Source of the DNA: Candidatus Woesearchaeota archaeon
GTDB lineage: Archaea; Nanobdellota; Nanobdellia; Pacearchaeales; GW2011-AR1
NCBI GenBank assembly: GCA_964406515.1
Contig: CAYORV010000001.1
Coordinates: 33,956 to 97,955 of the forward strand
Direction: 5' to 3'
DNA: 64,000 nucleotides
Position numbers and translations under genes: made by a program. Shown piece after piece: positions 15,023 to 50,898 of the stretch. Numbering within the stretch: position 1 is the stretch's first letter; each line of letters starts with the position of its first letter. The notes below the pieces were generated by a model that saw only the letters and a list, made by a program, of their open reading frames with translations, was not told the DNA's origin and made no database searches.

Positions 15023-15090
15023 AAAAACAACAGAAAGAAGTAATTTTTAAAATTACTCTATTGTAAATATATATTTCAGAAGCATATAGT

Positions 15091-15105
15091 TTTCTTATAT
15101 AAATG
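15091..15105 (+). promoter_or_regulatory. TATA-like element (tttcTTATATAAAtg) upstream of 15135
   Basis: AT-rich box ~31 bp upstream of the ATG. Confidence 0.35.
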
Positions 15106-15134
15106 CTTTAAAGAGTTTAAGCCGAAAGATTTGT

Positions 15135-17015
15135 ATGAAGGCTGTGATAATTGCTGGCGGGAAAGGAACAAGATTAAAAGAATTCTCAGAAGATAAAAAT
15201 AAGGCTATGCTAAAAATATATGACAAAACTATTCTAGAATATAACTTAGATAGAGCAATAGAAGCTAAGGTGATTGAAATAATCCTTGTTCTTTGCTATA
15301 AACCTGAAGAAATTATAAAAAAAATAGGAAAAGATTACAATGGAGTTAGGGTGACTTATGTTATTGAAAAAGAAGGGAAGGGAATTGTAAATGCTATTCA
15401 CAATGCAAGAGATGCTATAGGTAAAAGTGATTTTATTCTTATGCTGGGAGATGAAATCCTAATTAATGCAGATATTGTTGGGATGCTAAAAAAATTTAGA
15501 AGAGAAGACCTATTTGCTATTTGTGGCATAGTTAATGAAAAGGATAAGTCTAGTATCAAAAAAACTTACTCTGTTCTATCTAATGAGGATGGAAGAATTT
15601 TTAGATTAATTGAGAAGCCAAGATTTCCGATTAGTGATATAAAGGGCACAGGACATTGTGTTTTCAGAAATGAAATTTTGGATTACATTGACAAAACTCC
15701 AATTAACATGTATAGAAATCAGAAAGAACTTGTAGACATGATTCAATGTGCTGTTGATGATGGAAAAAATATCAAAATCCACAAGATAGCTGAAGGATAT
15801 GCTAATATAAATGAGTTTGAAGATTTAAATATGGCAAAAGAAATGATAAAAAAAATAAAACCTAAAGTTTTGATAATCCATAATCAGATGAAATATTATG
15901 GTGGAGGAGAATTGCTAATTGTTGAACTTGCAAATGAATTAACAAGAAGGGGCATAAAAAATGATATCCTTGCTTTGTCAAAATCAGAGGAAGTTGAAAA
16001 TGCTCTTTTGAACACTGAAATTATAACTCCAAATAATAATATTGACCTCAGACCTCCAGGATATAAAAATATGGGAGATATTTTTAATGCAATAAAAGTT
16101 TTTAGAAAAAAACTAAAAGAGATAGAAAAGAACTATGATGTTATTAATTTCCATGATTTTCCAGTAACGTGGACTTTGTGGCCCCGAAAAAAACCTTGTG
16201 TTTGGTTTATGAATCTCCCCCCAAATCTTTATAGCAAACCCGATGCAGGATTTTTTTATAAAACTCTGAATAAGGTAAGAATTTGGTTAGATAAGTTTAT
16301 TGTTAGACAAAGTGTAGATATAATAACTGTGGCAGAGAGTTTAAATCTGATTAGAGCAAAAAAAAGATATGGTAAACAGGCTAAATTGATTGATTTTGGA
16401 ATTGATTATAATTTCTTCTCCAAGGGAAATGCACAAAGAGCAATAAAGAAATTTAACCTGAAAAATAAGTTTGTTGTTGTTCAATCAGGAATATTATGCG
16501 ATGTTAAAAATCAATTTGAAAGTGTGAAAGCAATTGAAAAAGTAAAAGATAAAATTCCAAACATATTCTTAATCTTCACTGGAAAAGAAGATGCAGAATA
16601 CAGAAAGAAACTTGATGCTTATATAAAAGAAAAAAAACTCGAAGAACATATTTTATTTGCAGGATTTCTTGAAACAAGGAATGAACTAAGAGACATATAC
16701 AAGGCTGCGGATGTTGGATTATTTCCTATAAAGAAACAAGGAGGAGTTTTGGCTCCATTAGAAGCTTTATGTGCTGGAATTCCAATAATTGTATCTGAGG
16801 ACATGGAAACAGCGCCACTAATTAAAAAAGAAAATCTGGGAATTACAACAAAAGAATATGATAAAGTTTTATTAGATGTCTATAATAATAAAGAATCTCA
16901 TAAACAACTAGCAAAAAAAGCTGTTTTGTTTGTTAAAGAAAATTTAAACTGGAAGGCATTTGCAGATAAAATGGTTCAAGCGTATATTGTAGCTTGGAAA
17001 AAGTATAAAAAATAG
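15135..17015 (+). CDS. Fusion of a sugar-1-phosphate nucleotidyltransferase (N-terminal) and a GT4 glycosyltransferase (C-terminal)
   Basis: 'MKAVIIAGGKGTRLKEF' pyrophosphorylase motif. C-terminal 'FAGFLETRNELRDIYKAADVGLFP...GGVLAPLEALCAGIPII' GT4 E-x7-E region. Confidence 0.65.
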   Translation: MKAVIIAGGKGTRLKEFSEDKNKAMLKIYDKTILEYNLDRAIEAKVIEIILVLCYKPEEIIKKIGKDYNGVRVTYVIEKEGKGIVNAIHNARDAIGKSDFILMLGDEILINADIVGMLKKFRREDLFAICGIVNEKDKSSIKKTYSVLSNEDGRIFRLIEKPRFPISDIKGTGHCVFRNEILDYIDKTPINMYRNQKELVDMIQCAVDDGKNIKIHKIAEGYANINEFEDLNMAKEMIKKIKPKVLIIHNQMKYYGGGELLIVELANELTRRGIKNDILALSKSEEVENALLNTEIITPNNNIDLRPPGYKNMGDIFNAIKVFRKKLKEIEKNYDVINFHDFPVTWTLWPRKKPCVWFMNLPPNLYSKPDAGFFYKTLNKVRIWLDKFIVRQSVDIITVAESLNLIRAKKRYGKQAKLIDFGIDYNFFSKGNAQRAIKKFNLKNKFVVVQSGILCDVKNQFESVKAIEKVKDKIPNIFLIFTGKEDAEYRKKLDAYIKEKKLEEHILFAGFLETRNELRDIYKAADVGLFPIKKQGGVLAPLEALCAGIPIIVSEDMETAPLIKKENLGITTKEYDKVLLDVYNNKESHKQLAKKAVLFVKENLNWKAFADKMVQAYIVAWKKYKK

Positions 17016-17019
17016 TTGG

Positions 17020-18018
17020 TTATCTCTTTGCTAGTGTCTTTAATGGATGCTTCCTCAAATTCCTAACCATTTCACAAAGAAGGTAACAATCTTCATAACA
17101 TTTTAGGTTTTTTATCTTCTTAGTATAATCCTTTTGAAGAATTGTAGTTTGTTTGATATTTCCCAATGGAGCAATCTTCCCAACCAAGTTTTCACAAGGG
17201 AATATATCGCCGGTAAAATCTATGTAAATTGAATTTGTTCCTGCATAGCAAACATTTGTTATTGTTTTGTTTTCATAGAATCTTTTGAAAAATAAAAAAT
17301 AAGTATCATCAAAGAATGGTCTTTTTCTCTCTGCATAAATTTTCTTAAGCTGTTCTAATACTTTTTGTTTTTGAGAGTCTGCTAATGCTCTTCCTTCTTC
17401 GGTGTTTAATCTTCCATAATCCATTTCTGGGGAGAACATTATGTTTATGTCCTGTTCTTTAGCAAAATTCCATGCCCATAACAACTGGTCATAATTTTCT
17501 TTTGTCACAGTAAAAATAAAACTCATGTTTTGTCCTAATTTTTTCAGGTTTTCAATTGTTTCTAATAATTTTTTAAAGTTTCCTTTTACTCCTCTTATTT
17601 CATCGTGAGTTTCTTCTTTTCCATTAAAAGAAAGATTTATCAAAACATCTCTGGGCATATTCTTTACTTTTTCGTATATTAATTCTGGGAGCAAAGCATT
17701 TGTTAAGATAGCTAGGTGTAAATTGGGATTCTTTTGTTTGAACATATTTACAATTTCGTCTATATCTTTTCTCAAAAATGGCTCTCCTCCTGTCAAGGCC
17801 AAAAATCTAGCTTCTTTAAATATGGGAGTTTCAGCAAATTTTTTTAAATCGCCCGTGTTTGGTTCAATCTTCTTTTTGTTTTTCCATAAAAAACAAGTTT
17901 TACACCTTGAATTGCACAAATTGGTTAAAGCCAAGATTATCCTTCTTCGTTTTTTTATTGGAAGAATATTTTCTAGAGCATATAAATAATCAGTTTTCAT
18001 TTTTCCCCTCTTTCTCAT
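17020..18018 (-). CDS. Radical SAM enzyme with SPASM/twitch domain
   Basis: 'LTNLCNSRCKTCF' CxxxCxxC. C-terminal 'CYAGTNSIYIDFTGDIFPCENL...CYEDCYLLCE'. Confidence 0.7.
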   Translation of the reverse strand: MRKRGKMKTDYLYALENILPIKKRRRIILALTNLCNSRCKTCFLWKNKKKIEPNTGDLKKFAETPIFKEARFLALTGGEPFLRKDIDEIVNMFKQKNPNLHLAILTNALLPELIYEKVKNMPRDVLINLSFNGKEETHDEIRGVKGNFKKLLETIENLKKLGQNMSFIFTVTKENYDQLLWAWNFAKEQDINIMFSPEMDYGRLNTEEGRALADSQKQKVLEQLKKIYAERKRPFFDDTYFLFFKRFYENKTITNVCYAGTNSIYIDFTGDIFPCENLVGKIAPLGNIKQTTILQKDYTKKIKNLKCYEDCYLLCEMVRNLRKHPLKTLAKR

Positions 18019-19129
18019 AAGCTGGACACAATTTACACTCTTCAGGACATTTATTTTTCCTTATTGCTTTTCTCATTGCTTTGTATTTTGGAGAATACCA
18101 AATTTCCTTGAATGGTTTTTCTAATGCGTTGCCTAATGCCATTTTTTTCTGCCATTCTCGAGCATTTGCTTCGTTTTGACTACAACAAGGAGTAACATCT
18201 CCTGTAACAAAAATAAACGGCATTATATATTCCTTGCAGTTTTTCATTTTGGGCTTTTTTTCCAAACCTTCTGCTCCTTGTTTCGCAGACATATTAATTG
18301 TTATGGGGATTTTGTATTTTCTTGCTCTTTCTTTTATTAAATTCACATAATTTTCATCTATTTCGACAGCATACTTTTCAGCTTCTTTAAAACTGTGTAA
18401 CAAGGGAGTTACAAGAACTTCTCCAACTTCTGTGTTTAGTGAATGAACAAAATCTAAAAAGTCCAGAACCTCTGGTTTTGATTCACTTGTGATTATATAA
18501 TGAAAATTCAGTAGAGGAAATCTTTTTTTCATTTCTTTTTTTAGTCTAACAAAAGTTTTTATGTTTTTTTCAACTTCATCATAATTGCTTCCAGCACAAA
18601 TTTTTTCAAAACTTTTTTTGCTTGCTCCGTAGGTTGAAACAAATTGGAAATCTGGGCCAATCTCTATTAATTCCCTAATTTGATTATCGTCCTTAAAATG
18701 CGCGAAATGGTCCATCACTTCTATGATTGTTCCTTTTGATTTTGCATACCTCAACATTTTATGGAAATCCTTATTGAGATAAGAAGAGCCAATACCTGTA
18801 AGTCCAAGCCATTTTGGTTTACCATTCCCAAAATTGTCAATTATTCTTTTAAATTGTTCAAAACTCATATTTTTTGGTGGCTCTTTCCAATAAGTATGCT
18901 CGCAACAAACACACTTAAAGTTGCAGATTGTTGTTGGTTCTATTTCAAGGAATGGGGGGAACAAATCAATTCCGATTCTTGGGAAAATTTTATTTAATAA
19001 AAAAGATGCCATTTTTCTATTCCACCAAAATGGATAAACCCAAAACATGTTTAGTATTTCCTTCCATCTCCCAGCTAAAATATAATTAGAAAATAATCTC
19101 ATCTTATGGGTCAAAGGCATAGTTGGCAT
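17990..19129 (-). CDS. Radical SAM enzyme with SPASM domain
   Basis: 'EPTTICNFKCVCCEH' with Cys at 0, 4 and 7. C-terminal 'CCSQNEANA...CPEECKLCPAYE'. Confidence 0.7.
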   Translation of the reverse strand: MPTMPLTHKMRLFSNYILAGRWKEILNMFWVYPFWWNRKMASFLLNKIFPRIGIDLFPPFLEIEPTTICNFKCVCCEHTYWKEPPKNMSFEQFKRIIDNFGNGKPKWLGLTGIGSSYLNKDFHKMLRYAKSKGTIIEVMDHFAHFKDDNQIRELIEIGPDFQFVSTYGASKKSFEKICAGSNYDEVEKNIKTFVRLKKEMKKRFPLLNFHYIITSESKPEVLDFLDFVHSLNTEVGEVLVTPLLHSFKEAEKYAVEIDENYVNLIKERARKYKIPITINMSAKQGAEGLEKKPKMKNCKEYIMPFIFVTGDVTPCCSQNEANAREWQKKMALGNALEKPFKEIWYSPKYKAMRKAIRKNKCPEECKLCPAYEKEGKNEN

Positions 19130-19230
19130 TTTAGAAAATGGGAGTGGAGGTTTTTAAAGATTATCTAGTTTTTATCTTATATCCCACCTTAATTAAATTT
19201 ATAAATCTCGTCTTTTTCAAAGTCCTACTT

Positions 19231-20784
19231 ATGAAAAATAAAATTCTTTTTTTGAAGGCAAGAACGGGGATTGATGATCCTTCCCCCCCATTATCATTTG
19301 GTTATTTGGGTGGAATCGCGAAAGAAAAAGGATTTGAAGTTCTTGTTGAAAATCTTAATGCTCAATATAATAATTTTTCAAACCAAGATATTATAGAACT
19401 AATAAAGAAAGAGAAACCAGATATTGTGGGGGTTCATATTTTTACAAATGCGGCTAGGGATTCTTATAAATTAATAAAAATGATAAGACCGCATAGTAAA
19501 ATGATTATTGCAGGGGGGCCTCATGCAACTGCTTATCCTGAAGAAATATTAGAAAGAGGAGTTGATATTGCTTTTGTAGGAGAGGCAGACATTTCTTTTG
19601 GAAAATTTTTAGATTCTATCTTATCCAAAAAATCTCTTAAAAAAGTAAAGGGGATTGTCTATAAAGAAAAAGGGAAAGTAATAAAAACAAAACCAGCAGA
19701 TTCAGTTGTTAATCTTGATGTCATTCCATTACAGGATAAATCAATTCATAGGAAATCTGATTATGTAAAAGTAAAGGATGAAATAAATAACTTTGGGCAA
19801 ATTTTGTCTACAAGGGGTTGTCCTGGAAGATGCACATATTGTTTTTCTTTGTTTAATAAATGTTATAGATATATGTCTGCTAAAAAAGTATTTGATGAAA
19901 TTCTGCAACTGCATAAGGATTATGACATTAATTTTTTTAATTTTATCGACGACGCATTTACAATAGATAAAAAAAGATTAAATGAACTTTGCGATTTGTT
20001 TATAAATTCTGATTTAAATCTTAAATGGTCTTGTGGGACAAGAGTTGATTTTTTAGATGAGGAGATAATCTCTAAAATGAAGGAAGCTGGATGTGAAATG
20101 ATTACGCTTGGAATTGAAACTTGTCTTCCTAAAACATTAAAAGAGATGGATAAAGTAATTGGAGCAAATGGGATAACAACACCTCAACTTTATACCAAAC
20201 GTGCTGATGATATCTTAAAATGGTGTTATAGAAAAAATATCAGAGTGGGGGTTAATGCCTTAACAGGATTTCCCTGGGAAACAGCAAAGGATATGAGAGA
20301 AATGCAAGATTACATAAACAGGATAAAAAAATATGTGACTCAGGGATTTTATGGAGGGATTTTACAGCCACAACCTGGAACAAAAATGTATAATGAATAT
20401 GCAAAAGAATATGGTTTTGAAGAATGGTGGATACACAAAAAACCGCTTTTTGAAGACACAAGTTACCATCCTTTCTTTATGACATACTATCATCAATATT
20501 GGGACCATCTCCATAATGATTTTTTTAAATTTGATAAGGAGATGTTCAAGGAATTAGATAAATTATACAGATTGATGGGAAGATGGAACATATATATTTT
20601 TTCTAGAAGAAGATTTGGTAAGAATTTTTTATCATATGGAATCTATCAAGGAGTTCTTTTTTTGAGCAAGATTTCTTATTTGATTTTCAAAGTTTCTCCA
20701 AAAATAGAAAGAATACTTATGGAAAGAGTAAAAAAATTTAGTTATCAATTTAAGTTTAGAAAAGGAAATAAAAATCTGAATTAA
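19231..20784 (+). CDS. Cobalamin-binding radical SAM enzyme
   Basis: 'STRGCPGRCTYCFS'. B12-binding N-terminus begins at 'MKNKILFLKARTG'. The internal ATG at 19231 is preferred over the track start at 19138 because it leaves a ~100 bp divergent intergenic region containing 'aaaTTTATAAAtc' 28 bp upstream. Confidence 0.7.
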   Translation: MKNKILFLKARTGIDDPSPPLSFGYLGGIAKEKGFEVLVENLNAQYNNFSNQDIIELIKKEKPDIVGVHIFTNAARDSYKLIKMIRPHSKMIIAGGPHATAYPEEILERGVDIAFVGEADISFGKFLDSILSKKSLKKVKGIVYKEKGKVIKTKPADSVVNLDVIPLQDKSIHRKSDYVKVKDEINNFGQILSTRGCPGRCTYCFSLFNKCYRYMSAKKVFDEILQLHKDYDINFFNFIDDAFTIDKKRLNELCDLFINSDLNLKWSCGTRVDFLDEEIISKMKEAGCEMITLGIETCLPKTLKEMDKVIGANGITTPQLYTKRADDILKWCYRKNIRVGVNALTGFPWETAKDMREMQDYINRIKKYVTQGFYGGILQPQPGTKMYNEYAKEYGFEEWWIHKKPLFEDTSYHPFFMTYYHQYWDHLHNDFFKFDKEMFKELDKLYRLMGRWNIYIFSRRRFGKNFLSYGIYQGVLFLSKISYLIFKVSPKIERILMERVKKFSYQFKFRKGNKNLN

Positions 20785-20785
20785 T

Positions 20786-21958
20786 ATGAAAATCAAAGCT
20801 GTTCTTATTTCGCATGCATCTGTTTCAGTATATATGAAAGGTCAGAAACCACTCAGACAGATGATTCTTGACGATTGGTATTCTTTAACTGCCCAGCAAA
20901 TTAAAAAATTTTATCCTGAAATTGATGTTGAATGTTGGACTCCAGAGAGGGCGTTCAAAAAACCCCAAGAATTCAAAGAAAAAAATATAACCTACAGGCA
21001 ATTTCCTACAACTTTTTCTCCAAAATATGGTCTTGATTTTTCTATTCAAATGTTAAGAGAAATGAAAGAAGAAATGAAAAGAGCGGAGAAAGAGAATTAT
21101 AAAGTTATATTCCATTTACATGAATATCATAATTTACATGGTTTGATGATTGCCACGTTGTTTAAGAAAGGAAATATAATCGGGCAACACCATGGAGGAA
21201 GCTGGCCATTGAAACATCTAAAAGAAAATAAAAAATATCGTTTTTTCTTTCCTTTCTTTTTACTAGCACAAGTTTGGGAGAAGAAGGTCTTAAAGAATAT
21301 CAAATATTTTTATGCTTTGGGAAAAGAAGAAATAAATTATTTAGAAAAAATTGCTCCGAATTCTAAAACAAGATTTCAGACAATGGGAATTGAAGATTAT
21401 TATTATGAAAATATGGAAAAAGATGTTGCAAGAAAAAAGTTGAAATGGCCTCTTAATAAAAAAATACTCCTTTTTTTAGGGAGGCTTATTCCTGTAAAAG
21501 GTATTACCTATTTAATGGATGCTATGAAAGATTTGAAAGACGTTGAGTTAAAGGTTATTGGATGGGGAGATCAGGAACAAGAATACAAAGATTATGCTAA
21601 AATTAGAAAATTAGAAAATGTGGAATTTTTGGGTTCTTTTTTTTATAAGGAAAAGCTTCCCTACCTAAGTGGTGCTGATATTTTTATACTTCCCTCATCT
21701 AAGGAGGGAGCATCTGTGTCTGTTATGGAAGCTATGGCAAGAAATCTTCCGATTATCACGACAGACATTGGGGGAATGCCATTAATGGTGAAAAATGATA
21801 GAGAAGGTATAGTAATAGAGCAAAGAAATCCAAAAGATATTGTTAAAGCGGTTAGAAAAATATTAAATTGGAAAATAAAAAATGTTAAAAAATATGCGGA
21901 AAGGTATCGATGGAAAAAGATTATTGATGATACTGTGAAAGATTATGAAAATATATAA
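20786..21958 (+). CDS. GT4 family glycosyltransferase
   Basis: 'PSSKEGASVSVMEAMARNLPIITTDIGG' E-x7-E motif. A truncated paralog copy lies at 24927..25428. Confidence 0.7.
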   Translation: MKIKAVLISHASVSVYMKGQKPLRQMILDDWYSLTAQQIKKFYPEIDVECWTPERAFKKPQEFKEKNITYRQFPTTFSPKYGLDFSIQMLREMKEEMKRAEKENYKVIFHLHEYHNLHGLMIATLFKKGNIIGQHHGGSWPLKHLKENKKYRFFFPFFLLAQVWEKKVLKNIKYFYALGKEEINYLEKIAPNSKTRFQTMGIEDYYYENMEKDVARKKLKWPLNKKILLFLGRLIPVKGITYLMDAMKDLKDVELKVIGWGDQEQEYKDYAKIRKLENVEFLGSFFYKEKLPYLSGADIFILPSSKEGASVSVMEAMARNLPIITTDIGGMPLMVKNDREGIVIEQRNPKDIVKAVRKILNWKIKNVKKYAERYRWKKIIDDTVKDYENI

Positions 21959-21996
21959 TCTTGGATAGAAATTCTTAAAAACTTTTTATTTTTAAG

Positions 21997-22968
21997 ATGA
22001 AAATGAGAATAGGCCTTATTGGGATTGGGGATATTGCAAATGAACATATTTATGCAATCGAAAAAGTAGATGGACTAGAATTAAAAGCATTATCTGATTT
22101 AGATGAAAAAAGAAATCCAAATATTTCGGGGGTTAAATTTTACAGAGATTATAAAGAAATGCTAAAAGATTCTGATTTAGGGGCTGTTACCATAGCAACT
22201 CCAAATTACCTTCATGAGCAGATGACTATAGACTCCTTAGATTCAGGAAAGCATGTTTTAGTGGAAAAGCCTATGGCTGCAACAATAGAACAGGCAGAAA
22301 GGATGACTGAAGCCGCAAAAAAATCAGACAAGAGTTTAATTGTTTCTTATCATTTTCAATTCAAACCAGAGATTCTTCATTTCCTTGGATCAATAAAAGA
22401 ATATGGAAAAATAAATGGGTTTAAAGTGCATATCAGCACTCCTCCACCTACATATAGACAATGGCTTTTAAAAAAAGAGCAATCGGGTGGCGGGCCTTGG
22501 ATCGATAATGGAACAAATTGTATAAGCATGATAAGATTATTTGTTAATGATTTGAAAGTTACTAAAGCTGAATTTGGTTATGAACAACAAGATGTTATCT
22601 GTAACAAAAAGATTGAAGATTATGCAAGAGTTGAGCTTTCTGGGAAGGGAGTTCAGGGAACAGCAGTATCTGATTGGAGAATGAATAGTAATCAACTAAA
22701 ACTAATCTCTCACTATGAAACATCAAAAGGTTCTGTTGTTCTAGATCATTTAGATAATACTGTTTCCTTTAATGGAAAAGAAGTTTTTAGAGGTATGAAT
22801 AGAAAAACAAAGGGGGGTGCTCTTGAGAAAGATCGGAGATATGAAATGGTTTATCAAGATTTTTTAAATAGAATTAGTAACAGAACAGGCAACATTGATG
22901 ATTCACTAAAATGTATGCGACTTGTTGTCGAAGCATATGAGTTGGGAAATAAAAATATTATTCTGTAA
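21997..22968 (+). CDS. Gfo/Idh/MocA-family NAD(P)-dependent oxidoreductase (sugar or sugar-nucleotide dehydrogenase type)
   Basis: 'MRIGLIGIGDIANEHI' N-terminal Rossmann, 'EKPMAAT' motif. Confidence 0.65.
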   Translation: MKMRIGLIGIGDIANEHIYAIEKVDGLELKALSDLDEKRNPNISGVKFYRDYKEMLKDSDLGAVTIATPNYLHEQMTIDSLDSGKHVLVEKPMAATIEQAERMTEAAKKSDKSLIVSYHFQFKPEILHFLGSIKEYGKINGFKVHISTPPPTYRQWLLKKEQSGGGPWIDNGTNCISMIRLFVNDLKVTKAEFGYEQQDVICNKKIEDYARVELSGKGVQGTAVSDWRMNSNQLKLISHYETSKGSVVLDHLDNTVSFNGKEVFRGMNRKTKGGALEKDRRYEMVYQDFLNRISNRTGNIDDSLKCMRLVVEAYELGNKNIIL

Positions 22969-22994
22969 ATCTTATCAGTTTTTATTCTATCTCA

Positions 22995-23022
22995 AGATTA
23001 TACCTCAATAATCTTTATAAAT
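22995..23022 (+). promoter_or_regulatory. BRE/TATA-like promoter (agattatacctcaataatcTTTATAAAt)
   Basis: 28-bp element identical to 23839..23866. ~21 bp to the ATG at 23043. Confidence 0.55.
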
Positions 23023-23042
23023 AATATTTTTGATTTAAGTTA

Positions 23043-23810
23043 ATGTTAGGGAATTATACACCCATAGATTATCGGAAATGGGTTCTTGGAGATAAAACAA
23101 GAGAAGGAGTTAATATAAAGAGGCTAAATTTGTTGACCCCCAATGAATTAAAAGTTTGGAAAGAAGCAGTTCCTTATCAAGATCAGAGAAATGATCCTGG
23201 GCATGGAGAGCTTGCTACTTATTTTGCAATAAAATCTCTTGATTATCTTCCTGGAAAAAGAGAGATTGCTATTCCTGCTGTAATTTGCCATGATACTGGT
23301 TGGCATGGAAATGATCCTGAAGCATGGAAAAGATTAACTGAAGCAAATAAAGATAACCCTCAAGCTCTTGATAGTGAAGAAAATCGAAGACCTCACCAAA
23401 ATAGAGGGATTTTATTAGCAGGAAGAATTTTAGAAAGAGCAGGATATTTTGAAAATTATCCTGTTGAAAACTGGTTGGAAATCGCAGATGCTATTGGAGA
23501 CCATGATACAAGAAAACTTCCAGTAACAGAAAATGGAAAAATTCTTAGAACAGGGGATTTTTTATGGAGAGTTACTTATCCTTGCATAGAAATGTATCTG
23601 AGCGATTTGAATTCTGAGGAATTGTTTGAAAGGGTGAAAAAAACGTGCTTAAATGATCCCACATCTCCATTAGAAGGAATTAGTTTTGAAATAGCCAAAT
23701 TTGAATTAGCAAATACAATGTATTTTAAGTTTGGAGAAGAACAAGCAAGACAAACTCTTGGTGAGGAATATAGTGAAGAATTAATGCAAGTTAAAGATTT
23801 TTACAAATAA
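23043..23810 (+). CDS. Hypothetical protein, possible HD-domain metal-dependent phosphohydrolase
   Basis: Spaced 'PGHGE ... VICHDTGWHG ... IGDHDTRK' His/Asp pattern reminiscent of the HD domain. Weak. Confidence 0.35.
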   Translation: MLGNYTPIDYRKWVLGDKTREGVNIKRLNLLTPNELKVWKEAVPYQDQRNDPGHGELATYFAIKSLDYLPGKREIAIPAVICHDTGWHGNDPEAWKRLTEANKDNPQALDSEENRRPHQNRGILLAGRILERAGYFENYPVENWLEIADAIGDHDTRKLPVTENGKILRTGDFLWRVTYPCIEMYLSDLNSEELFERVKKTCLNDPTSPLEGISFEIAKFELANTMYFKFGEEQARQTLGEEYSEELMQVKDFYK

Positions 23811-23838
23811 CTAACCTCAAAAGATAAAATTGTTATAA

Positions 23839-23866
23839 AGATTATACCTCAATAATCTTTATAAAT
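23839..23866 (+). promoter_or_regulatory. BRE/TATA-like promoter, second copy of the 28-bp element
   Basis: Identical to 22995..23022. ~21 bp to the ATG at 23886. Confidence 0.55.
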
Positions 23867-23885
23867 TAAGTTAATAAAAAATTTC

Positions 23886-24863
23886 ATGAGTGTAATTAAT
23901 TTAGAACAAGCGAGTAAGGGTTTGTTAGATTTTCACAATCATTCAACTTATTCTGATGGAGGAGATACTCCCTCACAACTTGTAGAAAGAGCAAAAGAAT
24001 ATGGAGTTAGTGCTATGGCATTAACAGACCATCATGTTATAGGTGGCTTACCTGAATTTAGAAATGCTTGTGAAGAATTAGATATTTTGGGTATTCCTTT
24101 TGGAACAGAAATTGGGGTAGAACTTCCTCAAGAGATTTTAGAGGAAGGAGATAATGATTCTCCAGACATGGTTATTTTAGGGAGAAATCCAAGAAATGTG
24201 GAAGCAAAAATACAAGAGTATCAAGCCATTTTACAAGAAGACAGAGCAAATAGATTTTTACCAGAAACTTTTGAAAGAATGATAGAAAGGGGGTTTGATA
24301 TTCCCAGATTACCTTCAGATATAAAAACTGCTAATCCTGAAAGGCTAAACGAGTTAACAGAAGATTTGAAAAGAAATATGGCCAAAGGAGAGAATCTTGG
24401 AAAATTAATTGATTATATTCATAGCGTTGATTCTTCTATTAGGAGAGAAGATATTGAAGAACAACCAGGGAAATATGCAAATAAATTTTTTGCCATAGGT
24501 CAACCAGGATATGTAAAAAGATTGGAAGGATTTAGTTTAAGTGACGCAAAGACTTTATCAGAGGCGATGAATTGTAAATTGGGCATCGCACATCCAGGAG
24601 GAGAATACGGATTCCTATCAGATTCAGTATTATATCATATGATTGAAAAAGGAACCCACATAATAGAAACCCGAAATTATTTTAACACTCCTGAGCAAAA
24701 TGTCAGGTTTGATAAGATAGCAGGCGAACATAATTTAACCAGGTCTGGTGGTTCAGATTGTCATGGGGATAATAGCCCATTTAAAATTGGCATGTATGAT
24801 CGTCCTCAAAATCAGGTTCCTAAAGAGGTTCTAGAAGAATTGTGGGAAAGTTTGCCTGAATAA
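23886..24863 (+). CDS. PHP-domain metal-dependent phosphoesterase
   Basis: 'LDFHNHSTYSDGGDTP...MALTDHH' PHP signature. Confidence 0.6.
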   Translation: MSVINLEQASKGLLDFHNHSTYSDGGDTPSQLVERAKEYGVSAMALTDHHVIGGLPEFRNACEELDILGIPFGTEIGVELPQEILEEGDNDSPDMVILGRNPRNVEAKIQEYQAILQEDRANRFLPETFERMIERGFDIPRLPSDIKTANPERLNELTEDLKRNMAKGENLGKLIDYIHSVDSSIRREDIEEQPGKYANKFFAIGQPGYVKRLEGFSLSDAKTLSEAMNCKLGIAHPGGEYGFLSDSVLYHMIEKGTHIIETRNYFNTPEQNVRFDKIAGEHNLTRSGGSDCHGDNSPFKIGMYDRPQNQVPKEVLEELWESLPE

Positions 24864-24869
24864 TTGGTT

Positions 24870-24925
24870 AAATAAAATTCACATCGCCACCATAACAATC
24901 TATTGTTGAATTGATTAAAATGGCC
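24870..24925. repeat. Displaced ~55-bp copy (2-3 mismatches) of the 3' end of the radical SAM gene at 26934..28016
   Basis: 'aaataaaattcacatcgccaccataacaatctattgttgaattgattaaaat' here versus 'aaataaaattcacatcatcaccataacaatctattgttgaattgattagaat' at 26936..26988. Confidence 0.7.
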
Positions 24926-24926
24926 A

Positions 24927-25428
24927 ATGGATAAAAAGATTATCATTTATTTGGGTAGGGTTGGTTATCTTAAAGGTACTAATTATTTAATAGAAGCTAT
25001 GAAAAAATTAAAAGATGTTGATTTAAAATTAATAGGGTGGCTTCAAGATGCAAATTTCAAAGAACTTGAATTATCTAAAGAAATGAAAAATGTTGAGTAT
25101 TTTGGAGCAATTTTTGGAAAAAAGAAACTTGTTTATACAAGTGCATGTGATGCTTTTGTTTTGCCTTCAACAAAAGAAGGAGCTTCAATTGTTGTAATGG
25201 AAGCTCTTGCAAGAAATTTGCCAGTTGTTTCAACAGATGTTGGAGTAATAAAATTAGTAATAGAAGGTGGTTTAAATGGTAAAATAATTCCCCGGAGATA
25301 GTGATGCCATTGTCAAAGCTGTAAAAGAAATTTTGATATGGAAGAAAAAAATGTGAAACAATATGCAGAAAAATATAGGTGGGAAAAAATAATTGATGAT
25401 ACTATAGAAGATTATGAAAATATTTAAT
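24927..25428 (+). pseudogene. N-terminally truncated and frameshifted GT4 glycosyltransferase fragment (paralog of 20786..21958)
   Basis: The 124-aa ORF matches only the C-terminal third of the GT4 ('LGRVGYLKGTNYLIEAMKKLKDVDLKLIGW...PSTKEGASIVVMEALARNLPVVSTDVG'). The remainder ('...AIVKAVKEILIWKKKNVKQYAEKYRWEKIIDDTIEDYENI*') continues in another frame to 25428. Confidence 0.65.
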
Positions 25429-25432
25429 ATGT

Positions 25433-25460
25433 GAGATTATAACTCAATAAATTTTATAAA
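25433..25460 (+). promoter_or_regulatory. BRE/TATA-like promoter (gagattataactcaataaatTTTATAAA)
   Basis: ~22 bp upstream of the ATG at 25482. Confidence 0.5.
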
Positions 25461-25481
25461 CTAAGTTATGTCTTTCTTTTT

Positions 25482-26909
25482 ATGGTGCAAAGAAAAAAAG
25501 TTATATTGATGTATCCTAATTTTGAATGGGCAGAATTTATGGAGAGAACAAAATGGATTACACATCCTTATAATATTGGGATTCTTGCAGCAATGATTGA
25601 AGATAAATATGATGTGAGTATAATTGATGCAAATATGGATAATTTATCTAAAAACGAATTTGCTGAATTAATAAAAAATTCACAACCAGATGTTCTTGGA
25701 ATATCTGTAGCTACAAACGAATATACCAAATCTGGATTAATTGCAGCTGAGATAGCAAAAAAAAATAATCCGAACACAAAGATCATCATGGGGGGTGTTG
25801 CAGTAACATCTAATCATAAACCTTTCATTGAAAACCCTCATGTAGATGGTGTAATTATTGGGGAAGGAGAATATGCTTTCAAAAAGTTTTGTAGTTTTTT
25901 ATGTGGGAAAGACGATTTTCCAGAAAAAGGAATTTTGTATAAAAAAGATGGTGAGATCATGGGAAGTGGCAGGGTAGATTTTATTCAAGATTTAGATAAA
26001 CTCCCTCTACCTGCATATCATCTAGTTGATTTTAAGAAATATACTACCCAAACACCAAGGGAGGGTATTGATAGACCAAGAGACAGACCTTATGCACGAA
26101 TTCTCACTTCTAGAGGTTGCCCACATAATTGCTGTTTTTGTGAAGTCGGTTCTATATCTGGAAAAAAAGTAAGATTTAGAAGTGTGGAAAATATTATCAA
26201 GGAGATTGAATGGTTAATCAAGGAATATGGTATAAAGGCGTTGATTTTTGATGATGATAATCTTACTATTGATAAAGAGAGAGCTAAGAAATTATTTAGA
26301 ACAATGATTGATAGAAAGTATAATTTAAAATGGCATGATTCTGCGATAGCCATAGGCACTTTGGATGATGAAATGCTCAGTCTGATGAAAGAAAGCGGTT
26401 GTGAATTTATAAATGTAGCAATTGAAAGTGGGAATCCAAGAGTGTCTAAAGAAATTGTACACAAACCTATTAATTTAGGATCTGTCAAAGAAATGATAAA
26501 GAAAATAAAGGATCCTGGGATTGATGTGGGTGCTAATTTTATAATAGGGTTTCCTGGAGAAACCTGGGAAGAGATAAGAGAAACTATTAAGTTTGCTGAA
26601 GACATAGATGTTGATTATGTAAGAATATTTATTGCAACTCCTCTCCCCAACACAGAACTCTATAGAATGGCAAGAGAAGGTGGATATTTAAAAGAAGGTT
26701 TTGATTTTAACAGGCATTTATGGACAGATGGGTGGATTGAAACCAATGAATTTCGTGCGCAGGATTTGAAAATTTTAAGAGCCTATGAATGGGACAGAAT
26801 TAATTTCTCAGACCCAGAGAAGAGGAAAAAGATAGCAAGAATGATGGGAATGAATGAAGAAAGGCTAAATGAAATTAGAAAAGATACCTTAAAGAGAGCT
26901 AATCCTTAG
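25482..26909 (+). CDS. Cobalamin-binding radical SAM enzyme
   Basis: 'KVILMYPNFEW...' B12-binding N-terminus. 'TSRGCPHNCCFCEVG' CxxxCxxC. Confidence 0.75.
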   Translation: MVQRKKVILMYPNFEWAEFMERTKWITHPYNIGILAAMIEDKYDVSIIDANMDNLSKNEFAELIKNSQPDVLGISVATNEYTKSGLIAAEIAKKNNPNTKIIMGGVAVTSNHKPFIENPHVDGVIIGEGEYAFKKFCSFLCGKDDFPEKGILYKKDGEIMGSGRVDFIQDLDKLPLPAYHLVDFKKYTTQTPREGIDRPRDRPYARILTSRGCPHNCCFCEVGSISGKKVRFRSVENIIKEIEWLIKEYGIKALIFDDDNLTIDKERAKKLFRTMIDRKYNLKWHDSAIAIGTLDDEMLSLMKESGCEFINVAIESGNPRVSKEIVHKPINLGSVKEMIKKIKDPGIDVGANFIIGFPGETWEEIRETIKFAEDIDVDYVRIFIATPLPNTELYRMAREGGYLKEGFDFNRHLWTDGWIETNEFRAQDLKILRAYEWDRINFSDPEKRKKIARMMGMNEERLNEIRKDTLKRANP

Positions 26910-26933
26910 TTTAAGAATTGTTTTGGAAAAATA

Positions 26934-28016
26934 TCAAATAAAATTCACATCATCACCATAACAATCTATTGTTGAATTGATTAGAATATTTTTTGCATTA
27001 TTTGCACAATGATGCTTGCATTGTTCTTGAGGATTAAATGTTTCAAATATCTTTTTTGCTTCTTCGCTAAACCATAGCTCTTTGAAAGATTTATCTTTTA
27101 TTGAACCAAGAATTCCTGTTGATGAATAAGCTTTGTCATGACAAAAATAAACATTGCAATCAGCGCCAATCACAGGAACAGTCTGCATTATCCAACATCG
27201 ATTATAATTTCTTTCAGAAACACTTGCTCCTGAGAAGTCTCCTTCATATGTATCATAAACATTAAAACTTTCATCTTGGAATTCTTTTTTTGCTCTTTCA
27301 ATTTGTTCTAAAACTTGAGAATTTATTGGTGCATGATATTCTTTGAAATTCTGTATCCACATTGGAGTAATTTTTATATGGTTGCATCCCAAATCTTTAA
27401 AGTGTTTCACACTTCGATAAACTTGGTCAGCATTATCTTTATGGACGACAAAGTTTATTCCTAGTTCGCAGTTAGGGTCTTTTATTTGAGCAAATTTTCT
27501 TATGTTTTCTGTTAGCTTGTGAAACCATTCCTCAGGAACTCGTCTTATTTTTGAAAAAGATGCTGCATCACTTGCATCTGAAGATATTCTGACCCAATGC
27601 GCACGAGAAAGAATTTCTGCTTTTTTTCCTTCTAAACCTTGCCCGTTTGTTATAATTGATAGATTAATACCTGCATCAAGAATTTTCTGCATTGCTTCTT
27701 CAATATATGGATAAATCAAAGGTTCTCCTCCTCCAGAAAAAGTTACAGATTTAACTCCCATTTCTTTAAAGTCATTTATTATTTCCATTGTTTTTTCACG
27801 GGGAATTTCATCTAATCTATCTTTCATTTTATCCCTAACTTCTGTGTCCCCAGTATCAGGGGCATAAGAACAAAAAGCGCAATGATGATTACATCTATTG
27901 GTTGGTTTAAATCTAACATAAATTGGAGGAGTAATCTTTCCATCTACAAAAGATTTAAGTTTTTCATGATGCCAGAGAATCTTAAGCCCACCGTATCTTT
28001 GTTTTATTTCAGTCAT
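26934..28016 (-). CDS. Radical SAM enzyme with C-terminal SPASM/twitch-like Cys cluster
   Basis: 'KPTNRCNHHCAFCSY'. C-terminal 'CWIMQTVPVIGADCNVYFCHDK...CKHHCAN'. The ATG at 28016 (MTEIKQ) is preferred: it removes the overlap with the aminotransferase and sits ~25 bp downstream of a 'TTTATAAAtt' box. The track start is at 28079. Confidence 0.7.
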   Translation of the reverse strand: MTEIKQRYGGLKILWHHEKLKSFVDGKITPPIYVRFKPTNRCNHHCAFCSYAPDTGDTEVRDKMKDRLDEIPREKTMEIINDFKEMGVKSVTFSGGGEPLIYPYIEEAMQKILDAGINLSIITNGQGLEGKKAEILSRAHWVRISSDASDAASFSKIRRVPEEWFHKLTENIRKFAQIKDPNCELGINFVVHKDNADQVYRSVKHFKDLGCNHIKITPMWIQNFKEYHAPINSQVLEQIERAKKEFQDESFNVYDTYEGDFSGASVSERNYNRCWIMQTVPVIGADCNVYFCHDKAYSSTGILGSIKDKSFKELWFSEEAKKIFETFNPQEQCKHHCANNAKNILINSTIDCYGDDVNFI

Positions 28017-28050
28017 CTTATAAAAGGATAATTTTAATTTATAAATATTA

Positions 28051-29235
28051 TTATCTTTTTTCCCTATCTTCAAGAACATTCCTCATTCTTTCTATTCCTT
28101 TCTCAATATTCTTAATAGAATTAGCGTAACATAATCTAACATAACCTTCACCTTGTTCTCCAAAAAAATTCCCCGGGCATATAGCAACTCCTGCTTTTTC
28201 AAGCATAAGATCAGAAAATTCTCCACTTGTAAGTCCGGTCTCCTTTATATTTGGGAAAACATAAAACGCTCCTTTTGGATTTAAACAACTAATGCCGGGT
28301 AAACTATTTAATTTTTCAACAATAACATCTCTCCTTTTTCTAAATTCATCTATCATATCACTAATCGGTTCTTGACTGCCTTTCATAGCTTCTATTCCTG
28401 CCCTTTGTATGAATGGTGAAACGCATGAACTTGTTGTTTCAAGCAACAACCCCATTTTTTCAATTAAATCCGAAGGTCCTGTCACAGCTCCAAGACGCCA
28501 ACCAGTCATAGCATAAGTTTTGCTAAAAGCATGAACCACAATTGTTCTTTTTTTACATTGGTCATATTTGCTTGGAGAACAAAAATGAGTTTCTGAATCA
28601 GGATAAACCATTCTGCCATAAACTTCATCACTTAATAAGTATAAATCATATTTTTCAGCGATATTATAAATTCTTTCCATTTCTTTTTCTGTCATAACAG
28701 AACCTGTAGGATTGTGCGGGGAATTAATTATAATCATCCTTGTTTTATCTGTTATCATTTTTTCAACATCATCAGGATTTAATCTAAATTCATTTTTTTC
28801 ATAAAGAGGAATCTTTACTGGCTTAACTCCTAGAACTTTAAGTATTGAATTATATGAAACAAAACTGGGATCAGGAATAATAACTTCTTCCCCGGGATTT
28901 ACTGCACATGATACAGCATAATAAATTTGTATATTTGCTCCTGCAGTAACTAAAATTTGATTTAATTCAGGTTTAAATTTTCTAGACCTTTCTGTCATCT
29001 CTACTGCAATTTTTTTAAATTCTAATAACCCAGAAGAATTTGTATAATGGGTATCTCCTTTTTTTAAGGCTTCACAAGCAGCTTCAACAATACTTTTTGG
29101 AGTATCAAAATCAGGGTCCCCTATTTCAAAATGAATAATTTCCTTTCCTTGCCTTTCAAGCTCTTGAGCCTTGGCAAGTATTTGAAACATTTTTTGCCCT
29201 TCTATTTTATGTGCAACATCGGATAATCTTCTCAT
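28051..29235 (-). CDS. PLP-dependent aminotransferase, class I/II fold (AspAT family)
   Basis: 'AFSKTYAMTGWRLG' Lys motif, 'INSPHNPTG'. Confidence 0.75.
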   Translation of the reverse strand: MRRLSDVAHKIEGQKMFQILAKAQELERQGKEIIHFEIGDPDFDTPKSIVEAACEALKKGDTHYTNSSGLLEFKKIAVEMTERSRKFKPELNQILVTAGANIQIYYAVSCAVNPGEEVIIPDPSFVSYNSILKVLGVKPVKIPLYEKNEFRLNPDDVEKMITDKTRMIIINSPHNPTGSVMTEKEMERIYNIAEKYDLYLLSDEVYGRMVYPDSETHFCSPSKYDQCKKRTIVVHAFSKTYAMTGWRLGAVTGPSDLIEKMGLLLETTSSCVSPFIQRAGIEAMKGSQEPISDMIDEFRKRRDVIVEKLNSLPGISCLNPKGAFYVFPNIKETGLTSGEFSDLMLEKAGVAICPGNFFGEQGEGYVRLCYANSIKNIEKGIERMRNVLEDREKR

Positions 29236-31980: not shown

Positions 31981-32637
31981 ATGACAGAAATAAACTTGAT
32001 GGAGAGATATCCTCAAACTAAAAGAAATTTGAGTGAAAGGAGTCAAGAAAAAACAGAAGAAGACAGGGTTATTGCAGGGAAATTTGGGAAAGAATACTTT
32101 GATGGCGATAGAAAATATGGTTATGGGGGCTATAGTTATCATCCAAGATTTTTTTCTGAAGTTGTGGAGGATATGGTAAGACATTATGGACTTTCTGAGG
32201 GAAGCAAAATTCTTGATGTGGGATGTGCTAAAGGATTTATGTTACATGATTTTAAGAGATTGCATCCTGAAATAATTGTGAGAGGTATTGATATTTCTGA
32301 GTATTCTATTGAAAATTCTAAGCCAGAAGTTAGAGAATTTTTAAGTGTCGGAAATGCAAGAGATTTGAGTGAATTTGGAGATGATGAATTTAATTTAGTA
32401 ATCTCAATAAATACTATTCATAATCTTCCTTTAGAAGAATGTAAGCAAGCACTTAAAGAAATTCAAAGAGTTGGAAAAAATTCATTCATTACAGTTGATG
32501 CGTGGAGGGATGATGCTGGAAAAGAAGACATGAATACTTGGAATTTGACAGCAAAAACATTCATGCAAGTAGATGATTGGAAAAATTTATTTGATGGGGT
32601 AGGATATACTGGAGATTATTATTGGTTTATTCCCTGA
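31981..32637 (+). CDS. Class I SAM-dependent methyltransferase
   Basis: 'KILDVGCAKGFMLHD' motif I. Confidence 0.6.
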   Translation: MTEINLMERYPQTKRNLSERSQEKTEEDRVIAGKFGKEYFDGDRKYGYGGYSYHPRFFSEVVEDMVRHYGLSEGSKILDVGCAKGFMLHDFKRLHPEIIVRGIDISEYSIENSKPEVREFLSVGNARDLSEFGDDEFNLVISINTIHNLPLEECKQALKEIQRVGKNSFITVDAWRDDAGKEDMNTWNLTAKTFMQVDDWKNLFDGVGYTGDYYWFIP

Positions 32638-32677
32638 TTTTCATAAGGAATGACAAAAAATAATTTTACTAGTCTTA

Positions 32678-32697
32678 CTACATAAATCTTTATAAAT
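32678..32697 (+). promoter_or_regulatory. BRE/TATA-like promoter (ctacataaatcTTTATAAAt)
   Basis: ~21 bp upstream of the ATG at 32717. Confidence 0.5.
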
Positions 32698-32716
32698 TAA
32701 ATTAATAATAAAATTT

Positions 32717-33331
32717 ATGGAAAAAGAAGAGTTAATCAGCTTTACAAAAGAGATAGAAGAATTGTGGAATCAAGCAAAAATAAGAGCCCCTATTCATCTT
32801 TCTGGAGGAAACGAGGAACAATTAATTGAACTTTTTAGAGAAATAAAAAAGGGGGATTATATTTTTTCAACTTGGCGTTCTCATTACCATTATCTTTTAG
32901 CTGGAGGCTCTAAAGAAAAACTTAAACAAATGATTTTAGATGGGCATAGCATGCATATTAATGATAAAGAATTAAATTTTATTACTTCTTCAATTGTCGC
33001 AGGAACTCCGCCAATAGCTGCAGGAGTTGCCCTTGCTTTGAAAAAGAAAGGGAGCGACAAGCATGTTTGGTGCTTTATAGGGGATGGTGCAGAAGATGAA
33101 GGACATGTATATGAAGCAATACGATATGTGGATGGGCATAATTTACCTTGTACTTTTGTAATAGAGGATAATAATCGGGCTGTTGAAACACCCAAAAATG
33201 AAAGATATGGGAGTTCAGAAATGCCTTGGCCCAAATGTGTAAAAAGATATCATTATGTTCCAACTTATCCTCATTTAGATAATGGAGCATGGGTTAATTT
33301 TTCAGGTCAAAAAGCAGGAGGCTTATTATGA
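32717..33331 (+). CDS. TPP-binding alpha subunit of a split E1/transketolase-like enzyme
   Basis: 'CFIGDGAEDEGHVYEAIRYVDGHNLPCTFVIEDNNRAVETP' GDG-x(25)-NN motif. Only 204 aa. Confidence 0.55.
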   Translation: MEKEELISFTKEIEELWNQAKIRAPIHLSGGNEEQLIELFREIKKGDYIFSTWRSHYHYLLAGGSKEKLKQMILDGHSMHINDKELNFITSSIVAGTPPIAAGVALALKKKGSDKHVWCFIGDGAEDEGHVYEAIRYVDGHNLPCTFVIEDNNRAVETPKNERYGSSEMPWPKCVKRYHYVPTYPHLDNGAWVNFSGQKAGGLL

Positions 33332-34872: not shown

Positions 34873-34890
34873 CACCATAATTTTTATAAA
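34871..34890 (+). promoter_or_regulatory. TATA-like promoter (aacaccataaTTTTTATAAAt)
   Basis: ~23 bp upstream of the ATG at 34913. Confidence 0.45.
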
Positions 34891-34912
34891 TTAAAATAAG
34901 TAAAGCCATTAT

Positions 34913-42159: not shown

Positions 42160-42260
42160 TATATTATTTAATTAATGTCCCTTATAAATTTTTATATAAA
42201 ACATAATAAAAAATTAATAAATGCTAATGAATTTATGAGTAAAAAATAGTAATATATATT

Positions 42261-42282
42261 TTCCCTCAATAATCTTTAAAAG
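42261..42282 (+). promoter_or_regulatory. BRE/TATA-like promoter (ttccctcaataatcTTTAAAAG)
   Basis: ~22 bp upstream of the ATG at 42304. Confidence 0.55.
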
Positions 42283-42303
42283 ACATCATCTTCTTTTGCA
42301 TTA

Positions 42304-47083: not shown

Positions 47084-47388
47084 ATATACCCTCTATCTCC
47101 AAGATGTTTTTTTAACTTCGCCTCTTCCCGCTCAGTATACGGATCCACTTCTTCTTCCTCGGCGTCTATTTTTTGTATTTGATTTCCTATAGCAGTTGCA
47201 AATTCTGCCTCTTCATCTTTAGTATATATTTCCTTTCTTTCATCTTCTTCATTTTCAAAAACTACTTGTTCTAAAACAAAAGTGATATATTGTTGAATAG
47301 ATTCAAAACTTGTTTCTTTTGTTTTCTTTTCTAATTTTTGTTTTAATTCCTTAGAAATTGAAAGATTTATTTTATTTGCCATCTTCAC
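47080..47388 (-). CDS. Small acidic protein with an RHH (CopG/Arc)-like N-terminus (family member 1 of 3)
   Basis: 'INLSISKELKQKLEKK...SIQQYITFVLEQ' beta-alpha-alpha pattern. Acidic tail with two 'YTxEEA' repeats, ending '...LKKHLGDRGYI'. 4-nt overlap with the upstream sulfatase-family gene. Confidence 0.4.
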   Translation of the reverse strand: MKMANKINLSISKELKQKLEKKTKETSFESIQQYITFVLEQVVFENEEDERKEIYTKDEEAEFATAIGNQIQKIDAEEEEVDPYTEREEAKLKKHLGDRGYI

Positions 47389-48815: not shown

Positions 48816-48816
48816 T

Positions 48817-50531: not shown

Positions 50532-50616
50532 TCATCTTAATATTTTAATCTATTTTTAAATTTTATGGACCTGGAATAGTAGAAATGTTTTAATACCTTA
50601 ATTTCATTTGTGAAGC

Positions 50617-50835: not shown

Positions 50836-50898
50836 TAAAATTTATTACCGAGGAATACTAAATAAGATTTAAAAAGTAATTATATATAATTATATACA

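Follow-up and report, generated by a model that had tools for sequence, protein, structure and literature searches.

A probable recombination scar in an archaeal glycan island joins a displaced radical-SAM gene end to a glycosyltransferase remnant

Introduction

In the 64-kb stretch of archaeal DNA analyzed here (the window, meaning that stretch at its full length), the 3' end of a radical-SAM (rSAM) gene is present twice, once in the gene itself and once next to a PHP-domain gene, where it runs straight into the middle of a GT4 glycosyltransferase gene. How was this fusion formed, and does it have a function? A preliminary description of the window had taken it for the record of a past duplication or rearrangement within a variable glycosylation locus. 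We examined the repeat, the glycosyltransferase piece, the gene order in relatives and the representation of the locus in independent metagenome assemblies.

The island

Pfam was run on the open reading frames (ORFs) of at least 100 amino acids over positions 214-59139, and nearly all of the 52 ORFs scanned were glycan-related. They included sugar-nucleotide enzymes, glycosyltransferases of families GT2, GT4 and GT9, at least 10 rSAM or B12-rSAM enzymes, sulfatases and phosphodiesterases. The GC content of the window was 31%. Homologues were named Pacearchaeota, Nanoarchaeota or "archaeon" by their sources, and two of the metagenomes containing the locus, 3300025697 and 3300022858, come from Ace Lake, Antarctica (PMC8116208). 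The island, devoted to the biosynthesis of glycans and phosphonates, extends over at least 64 kb in an uncultivated archaeon of Ace Lake. We take this host with moderate confidence to be of the DPANN type, on the strength of the source names of homologues and of TATA-like motifs of archaeal type. No integrase, recombinase or transposase was detected by Pfam among ORFs of at least 100 amino acids across 214-59139, and Rfam (at the gathering threshold) and ARAGORN found no RNA element and no tRNA or att context in the whole window.

Several features of the island were recorded alongside. Genes for rSAM enzymes are unusually dense at 13484-28079 and 44894-52317; at least five of them are B12-binding (starting at 13484, 19138, 25482, 44894 and 50899), and five are of the SPASM or plain type, including those at 4643, 17020, 17990 and 26934. 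A phosphonate module (52196-55856) lies inside the glycan island and consists of a cytidylyltransferase-PEP mutase fusion (52196-53638), a TPP-dependent decarboxylase-like gene (53635-54756) and an Fe-alcohol dehydrogenase (54753-55856), followed by two paralogous phosphodiesterase-family genes; this module suggests a surface glycan decorated with phosphonate. The phosphodiesterase-family genes form a tandem pair (55856-57235 and 57311-58687; region 55859-57619; approximately 69% identity), as do two sulfatase genes (47385-48830 and 49101-50531; region 47243-50532), which share 79 to 89% nucleotide identity over repeat blocks. Such tandem paralogue pairs indicate that local duplication is active in the island.

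The displaced gene end and the junction

The gene at 26934-28079 on the minus strand encodes a protein with Pfam Radical_SAM and SPASM domains. Its true 3' end (26934..26987, minus strand) reads ...CYGDDVNFI* with a TGA stop, and its C-terminus in minus-strand translation is ...ILINSTIDCYGDDVNFI*. A displaced copy of this 3' end, comprising a TAA stop and the last 16 codons (...LINSTIDCYGGDVNFI*), was found at 24867..24917 on the minus strand by sequence comparison and BLAST, and translates as ...ILINSTIDCYGGDVNFI*. The two copies form a direct repeat (24870-24921 and 26936-26987) in which 49 of 52 bases are identical, and the repeat as a whole corresponds to the last 17 codons of the rSAM/SPASM gene. 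BLAST of the 52-nt repeat against the fetched loci gave 94% identity over 52 nt (E = 4e-17), and by our own estimate the chance expectation of a 49/52 match over all position pairs of a 64-kb window of 31% GC is approximately 1e-13. The repeat claimed in the preliminary description was thus confirmed. No third copy was present within the window.

Similarity between the copies begins on the left at the stop codon (TAA in the copy, TGA in the gene) and ends on the right at 24917/24921. Two of the mismatches fall in a single codon (24886-24887, GC versus AT), giving Gly in the displaced copy and Asp in the gene, and the third is at 24918 (A versus G), a base that probably already lies on the glycosyltransferase side of the junction. 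The identical core of the repeat is 30 nt long (24888-24917, equal to 26954-26983). On the left, only 3 nt separate the stop of the displaced copy from that of the PHP-domain gene (23886..24863, plus strand; identified by Pfam), with which the copy converges. All three rSAM orthologues examined have a TGA stop; at the Gly/Asp position they carry Asp (contig L014), Asn (L012) and Gly (L013). That the displaced tail has TAA and Gly and the functional tail TGA and Asp fits two versions of the island better than one duplicated sequence.

The fusion of the rSAM tail to the glycosyltransferase lies at about 24917, where similarity to rSAM stops and similarity to GT4 starts (24914-24918), and it is abrupt. 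By direct reading of the junction zone (24914..24921), the scar has TTAAAAT/GGCC, the rSAM gene TTAGAAT/ATTT and the resident GT4 gene (20786-21958) TTGAAAT/GGCC; in frame, TTA AAA TGG CCA of the scar (L-K-W-P) matches TTG AAA TGG CCT of the resident GT4. The TTA[G/A]AAT of the two rSAM tails thus resembles the TTGAAAT of the resident GT4, and a short, imperfect microhomology appears to join two unrelated genes. We infer the exact crossover base, the true parent of the glycosyltransferase piece (GT4') being absent from the databases searched.

The glycosyltransferase remnant

Rightward of the junction lies a GT4 remnant (24918..25427, plus strand), which alignment and Pfam identify as a pseudogene covering approximately residues 222 to 390 of a 390-amino-acid GT4. 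Once repaired, it yields 169 amino acids that align end to end with residues 222 to 390 of the intact relative, the resident full-length GT4 (20786..21958, plus strand, 390 amino acids), which follows the B12-rSAM gene 19138-20784, as in L014 and L020. Identity between the two was 54% at the protein level and 68% at the nucleotide level, and tblastn of the remnant against an orthologue gave E = 1e-57. The 124-amino-acid ORF at 24927-25301 contains Pfam domains Glycos_transf_1 (PF00534) and Glyco_trans_1_4 (PF13692), and the EX7E motif (EGASIVVME) is still legible. A match of this ORF to the C-terminal third of the GT4 had been proposed; the match is indeed C-terminal, but the remnant as a whole covers approximately 43% of a GT4 rather than a third. 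The first ~221 codons, encoding the N-terminal Rossmann-like (acceptor) domain, are gone, and in their place upstream of the remnant stand the rSAM tail and then the PHP gene.

The truncation and the change of frame described earlier are both real, and the change of frame is due to two compensating frameshifts, not one. The first is a +1 shift by an extra C at 25293 (run 25290-25293), which leads to an in-frame stop at 25299-25301 and so to the 124-amino-acid ORF; the second is a -1 shift by a missing A in the A7 run at 25345-25351. Together they return the last 25 codons to the original frame. No stops were found in the remnant beyond those due to the frameshifts, and its decay is therefore modest and its age uncertain. 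Divergence at second codon positions was 0.20 in the remnant versus 0.08 to 0.125 among intact homologues, at similar third-position divergence, which suggests that the remnant partly evolved under relaxed constraint; such codon-position counts give no date for the event.

A functional split GT4, or one expressed by programmed frameshifting, was considered and rejected: there is no N-terminal domain nearby and no promoter-like motif, and the +1 and -1 shifts lie in plain homopolymer runs. None of the copies of the promoter-like motif listed across the window (see below) lies upstream of the remnant. With the PHP gene only 64 nt away on its upstream side, the remnant might be reached by read-through transcription. 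Most likely, the scar has no effect of its own. The 124-amino-acid "glycosyltransferase" and a 29-amino-acid ORF called in public records are, in terms of annotation, pseudogene fragments.

The remnant was 54 to 60% identical to every available GT4, whereas those GT4s were 66 to 78% identical to each other over the same region. A database search for its full-length parent returned best matches of only 58 to 59%, on 1-kb contigs. The remnant derives from a divergent version whose full-length form is absent from the databases searched. At 68% nucleotide and 54% protein identity to the resident GT4, it is a relative of that gene and not a recent duplicate; it is what is left of the native neighbor of the B12-rSAM gene that follows it.

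Gene order in relatives

Immediately beyond the remnant is an intact gene for a B12-binding radical SAM protein (25482..26909, plus strand, 475 amino acids; Pfam B12-binding and Radical_SAM), the only intact gene between the two copies of the repeat and, from its family, presumably a glycan-modifying enzyme. Orthologues were found in L019 (81% identity), L020 (72%) and L021 (68%). An exact look-up of this protein found it in this context only, and exact-protein look-ups of the resident GT4 and of the B12-rSAM revealed no further arrangements. A 56-amino-acid representative of the 90% cluster of the B12-rSAM (L018; JGI 3300042316 Ga0453209_0005815) was set aside: its contig, with a GC content of 47%, showed no similarity to any part of the window, and its membership is probably a clustering artefact.

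In L020 (NCBI GCA_043817815.1), orthologues of the genes rSAM(17020) and rSAM-SPASM(17990) stand on the minus strand and are followed contiguously by an orthologue of B12-rSAM(19138) (70%), a full GT4 of 389 amino acids and the orthologue of B12-rSAM(25482); further on come an orthologue of rSAM(26934) (63%, minus strand) and then an SDR gene. In L019, an intact GT4 C-terminus lies immediately upstream of the B12-rSAM(25482) orthologue. The spacer from the GT4 stop to the ATG of the B12-rSAM gene, with a promoter-like motif, aligns among the window, L019 and L020. GT4 followed by B12-rSAM(25482), the order kept in these DPANN-type contigs, is an ancestral adjacency, and the remnant is, on this comparison of gene orders, the leftover of a GT4 that natively preceded B12-rSAM 25482-26909 and not a copy of the resident GT4.

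The 3' boundary of the rSAM gene was a place of change in the relatives as well. L021 shares with the window the convergent arrangement of the B12-rSAM and rSAM genes, here at the level of orthologues; in L014, an orthologue of GT4(20786) (80%) is directly convergent with the rSAM orthologue (80%); and L012 and L013 have other genes there. The differences among L014, L012 and L013 at the rSAM 3' end mark it as a recurrent boundary of variable content. The designation as a variable glycosylation locus was upheld. Contig scans with the rSAM protein, and then with its 3-sequence alignment, returned no relatives.

The promoter-like motif (ATTATAACTCAATAAATTTTATAAAC...; 25436..25474, plus strand) in front of the B12-rSAM gene belongs to a motif family of the window and is conserved in L019 and L020; its TTTATAAA lies approximately 22 to 29 nt upstream of the ATG. 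Copies precede neighboring genes at 22997, 23841, 25436, 32675, 34869 and 42258. As an observation in its own right, the family is a conserved motif of approximately 35 to 50 nt (ATTATACCTCAATAATCTTTATAAAT...) at 22997-23045, 23841-23889, 25436-25484, 32657-32719, 34866-34904 and 42258-42306, ending 20 to 25 nt before the ATG, and looks like a shared archaeal promoter of the BRE/TATA type with short leaders.

A 2,066-bp segment present in one allele and absent from another

The remnant and the B12-rSAM gene together make up a segment of 2,066 bp (24918..26983, with breakpoints that are ambiguous within the 30-nt core). The window carries this segment (allele A), and two contigs lack it (allele B). 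The first, L007 (ENA ERZ27315773, 8,131 nt), matches 16862-24921 of the window (8,060 nt) with 11 differences. Nine of them fall in a cluster at 20592-20655, another is the A/G difference at 24918, and a flanking SNP lies at 22493; past the repeat it continues into 71 nt of rSAM gene body instead of the GT4 remnant. The second, L017 (ENA ERZ27315627, 3,005 nt), matches 29909-26936 (2,974 nt) with only two, repeat-specific, differences and continues past the repeat for 31 nt into the PHP side. In allele B the PHP gene is thus directly convergent with an intact rSAM gene. Both contigs read CGCC...G across the repeat, that is, the variant of the left copy followed by that of the right copy, a hybrid expected if the 2,066 bp are absent with a crossover in the 30-nt core. 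Sample ERZ27315773 also contained an allele-A contig (L003). Allele B is defined by two short-read contigs from two samples, each ending within 31 to 71 nt of crossing the repeat, and a presence/absence polymorphism of the segment within the same Ace Lake population is likely.

The flanks of alleles A and B are nearly identical, with no differences in 2.9 kb on the right and, on the left, two isolated differences and one 64-nt patch in 8 kb. Near-identical flanks together with a remnant bearing two frameshifts favor an older allele A, from which allele B would have arisen by recent repeat-mediated deletion; on the other hand, indels in homopolymers may arise quickly, and another part of the island shows polymorphism for an indel of 1 nt. 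We consider it moderately probable that allele B is a recent pop-out deletion, and possible, at a lower probability, that it is the surviving parent with the left-hand arrangement (V1, below). Separately, the patch of L007 (20592-20655), located toward the end of the B12-rSAM gene 19138-20784, holds 9 differences in 64 nt, against only 2 in the other ~8 kb, and looks like a short gene-conversion or recombination patch.

A segment bounded by direct repeats of a gene's 3' end and precisely absent elsewhere is the classic signature of an integrative element, and the 2,066 bp could accordingly be read as a mobile cassette inserted site-specifically at the rSAM 3' end, the 52-nt repeat being a duplication of the attL/attR type that restores the gene end. 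Such an insertion is very improbable here: the Pfam scan of 214-59139 (ORFs of at least 100 amino acids), which takes in the segment, found no integrase, recombinase or transposase, and there is no tRNA; the left end of the segment is the middle of a truncated gene; both of its genes stand in the chromosomal order of the relatives' islands and not as a discrete element in other contexts; and the window has no other copy of the 52-nt sequence. A composition profile showed no GC step at the segment borders and no compositional sign of foreign origin.

The 30-nt identical core shared by the direct repeats means that the segment can be lost precisely. Whether it also behaves as a recombinase-independent gene cassette, lost and possibly regained by recombination in the 30- to 52-nt repeat, is a tentative and rather doubtful extension. 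Regain would proceed via a circular intermediate or via the DNA of neighbors, and the junction of such a hypothetical circle would consist of the end of the B12-rSAM intergenic sequence, a CATC-type tail and AAATGGCC. If this were so, a natural DPANN population would be polymorphic for one cobalamin-dependent rSAM glycan-modifying enzyme, and hence for its surface glycan, a population-level phase variation made by a recombination scar.

Reproducibility across assemblies

Both frameshifts lie in homopolymer runs, and both allele-B contigs end soon after the repeat, as might be seen if the junction, the frameshifts or both were assembly or sequencing errors and the allele-B contigs chimeras across the repeat. 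We rate an artefact of this kind as highly improbable. The stretch 24800-25500 (701 nt) was 100% identical in four assemblies covering 695 to 701 nt of it (JGI 3300025697, Logan SRR5458845, ENA ERZ27316110 and JGI 3300022858), and contigs of JGI 3300005915 and ENA ERZ27315536 matched at 100% up to their ends at about 25163, before the frameshifts. All independent assemblies extending to the junction of allele A, among them contigs longer than 200 kb, gave it with 100% identity, and the frameshifts were identical in all four assemblies spanning them, which come from the JGI, Logan and ENA pipelines. Identical sequence in independent assemblies means that the frameshifts are not random sequencing errors. 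A sequencing error that restores a full GT4, raised in the preliminary description as an alternative, fails on this agreement, and also because ~221 N-terminal codons are missing even after repair. With regard to allele B, the 30-nt core is far shorter than the assembler k of 141, from which we reason that a contig needs reads with CGCC, the core, G and the rSAM body; the same junction was, furthermore, obtained in two samples and from both sides.

Compared with the 213-kb contig of JGI 3300025697, the window matched except for one 1-nt indel elsewhere. At ~32436, in the methyltransferase gene 31981-32637, JGI 3300025697 is without one A (TTTAGAGAATG versus TTTAGAAGAATG), which splits the 218-amino-acid methyltransferase into calls of 183 and 35 amino acids. 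At this position the Logan and ENA assemblies have the same sequence as the window; the indel represents a frameshift that is segregating, or else an error of assembly.

Proposed formation of the scar

Most probably, the scar goes back to a single illegitimate join, made out of register between two island versions that had diverged, which left a non-functional junction. The first version (V1) would have had the order B12-rSAM(19138), GT4, GFO, hyp and PHP, the last convergent with rSAM(26934), which is the arrangement of allele B; the second (V2) would have had GT4' followed by B12-rSAM(25482), convergent with rSAM. V1 would have been broken approximately 50 nt inside the rSAM 3' end and V2 in mid-GT4', the ends being joined at a few bases of microhomology (TTA/AAT) and any second crossover lying in shared flanking sequence, a pattern of homology-facilitated illegitimate recombination (HFIR) or of unequal crossing-over between chromosomes. 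In its product, the left part would come from V1 and the right part from V2. The B12-rSAM gene would have been acquired together with its own promoter, whereas the 5' 57% of GT4' would have been left behind, and the rSAM 3' end would now be present twice, in direct repeats spaced by 2,066 bp. What remained of GT4', without N-terminal domain or promoter of its own, would later have acquired its two homopolymer frameshifts.

A single join explains why the rSAM tail abuts the PHP gene, why the GT4 piece starts in mid-gene and is then followed by its native neighbor and promoter, why the tails differ (in the stop and one codon) while the rest of the rSAM gene is identical between alleles, and why the duplicated tails are direct repeats. 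The left parental arrangement (PHP convergent with rSAM) is present in L007 and L017. The right one (GT4 followed by B12-rSAM, and B12-rSAM convergent with rSAM) is present in L019, L020 and L021 at 68 to 81% identity. The V2 parent that we infer was not found in the databases searched, where the remnant's nearest relatives, whether full-length or partial, were only 58 to 59% identical to it.

A simple tandem duplication was rejected: the rSAM tails are 94% identical versus 68% nucleotide identity for the GT4 parts, and the intervening genes differ (GFO-hyp-PHP versus B12-rSAM). Of the earlier proposal of a past duplication or rearrangement, the recombination scar therefore stands and a simple internal duplication does not, gene content and divergence being different. 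A two-step internal history would yield exactly the junction and repeats seen. Two full tandem rSAM paralogues would first have existed, by duplication or additive acquisition, in the order PHP, rSAM copy 1 (minus strand), GT4', B12-rSAM and rSAM copy 2 (minus strand), and a microhomology-mediated deletion would then have run from 50 nt inside rSAM copy 1 to the middle of GT4'. Tandem duplicates do exist in the island (sulfatases, phosphodiesterases); however, two events are invoked although one is enough, the search turned up no contig carrying the rSAM gene twice at full length, and allele B becomes a third event, though a pop-out would be easy. We regard this history as unlikely and retain the single out-of-register join.

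Comparison with known systems

Scars of this kind are already well known in bacteria (Rhs/T6SS orphan 3' ends, mosaic O-antigen loci), and the interest of the present one lies in its unusually complete documentation in an uncultivated archaeal population rather than in a new mechanism or molecular system. It is a natural example of the rebuilding of a surface-glycan island in a small-genome archaeon, in which the junction, the parental gene orders and the probable polymorphism are visible in metagenomes. Island content can, on this reading, change by out-of-register, integrase-free recombination inside the island; a B12-rSAM gene would have been gained at the cost of a dead GT4 half, and the short repeat would make the gain reversible.

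HFIR has been described for naturally transformable bacteria and for E. coli conjugation (PMC3240628; references in PMC5361080). As in HFIR, the exchange would have one end within shared sequence, while its other end would join unrelated sequences at a few bases of microhomology, with foreign genes added and truncated genes at the junction. HFIR was observed experimentally, whereas the event described here is deduced from a natural product in an uncultivated archaeon; donor and recipient are indistinguishable here, and the product would look no different after unequal crossing-over between two whole chromosomes. Orphan 3' gene ends and displaced modules also occur in T6SS effector-immunity and Rhs/CDI arrays, for which HFIR without an integrase has been proposed (PMC5361080). 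There, too, a module that comes in takes the place of part of a resident gene, whose old 3' end is set aside as a remnant, and mosaic loci build up over repeated events. Those arrays, in contrast, keep functional orphan immunity genes under conflict-driven selection, while in the scar the displaced 50-nt gene tail and the GT4 half appear dead, and the locus concerns surface glycans, not toxins.

Replacement-type flexible genomic islands (O-antigen and capsule loci, the archaeal and bacterial "glycotype") group genes for sugar nucleotides, glycosyltransferases and modifying enzymes into large clusters whose content varies from one close relative to another between conserved flanks, and classic island replacement proceeds by homologous crossovers in those flanks and leaves no scar. 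The present island resembles them in that the surroundings of one and the same rSAM gene vary in every one of the relatives L012 to L014, L020 and L021; it differs in that the crossover would lie inside the island and out of register, giving a duplication and a pseudogene. The last system compared is the direct-repeat pop-out of a duplicated or Campbell-type insertion. It would not apply if allele B were an unrecombined parent instead, but the hybrid repeat of allele B, with CGCC on its left and G on its right, is as expected of such a pop-out.
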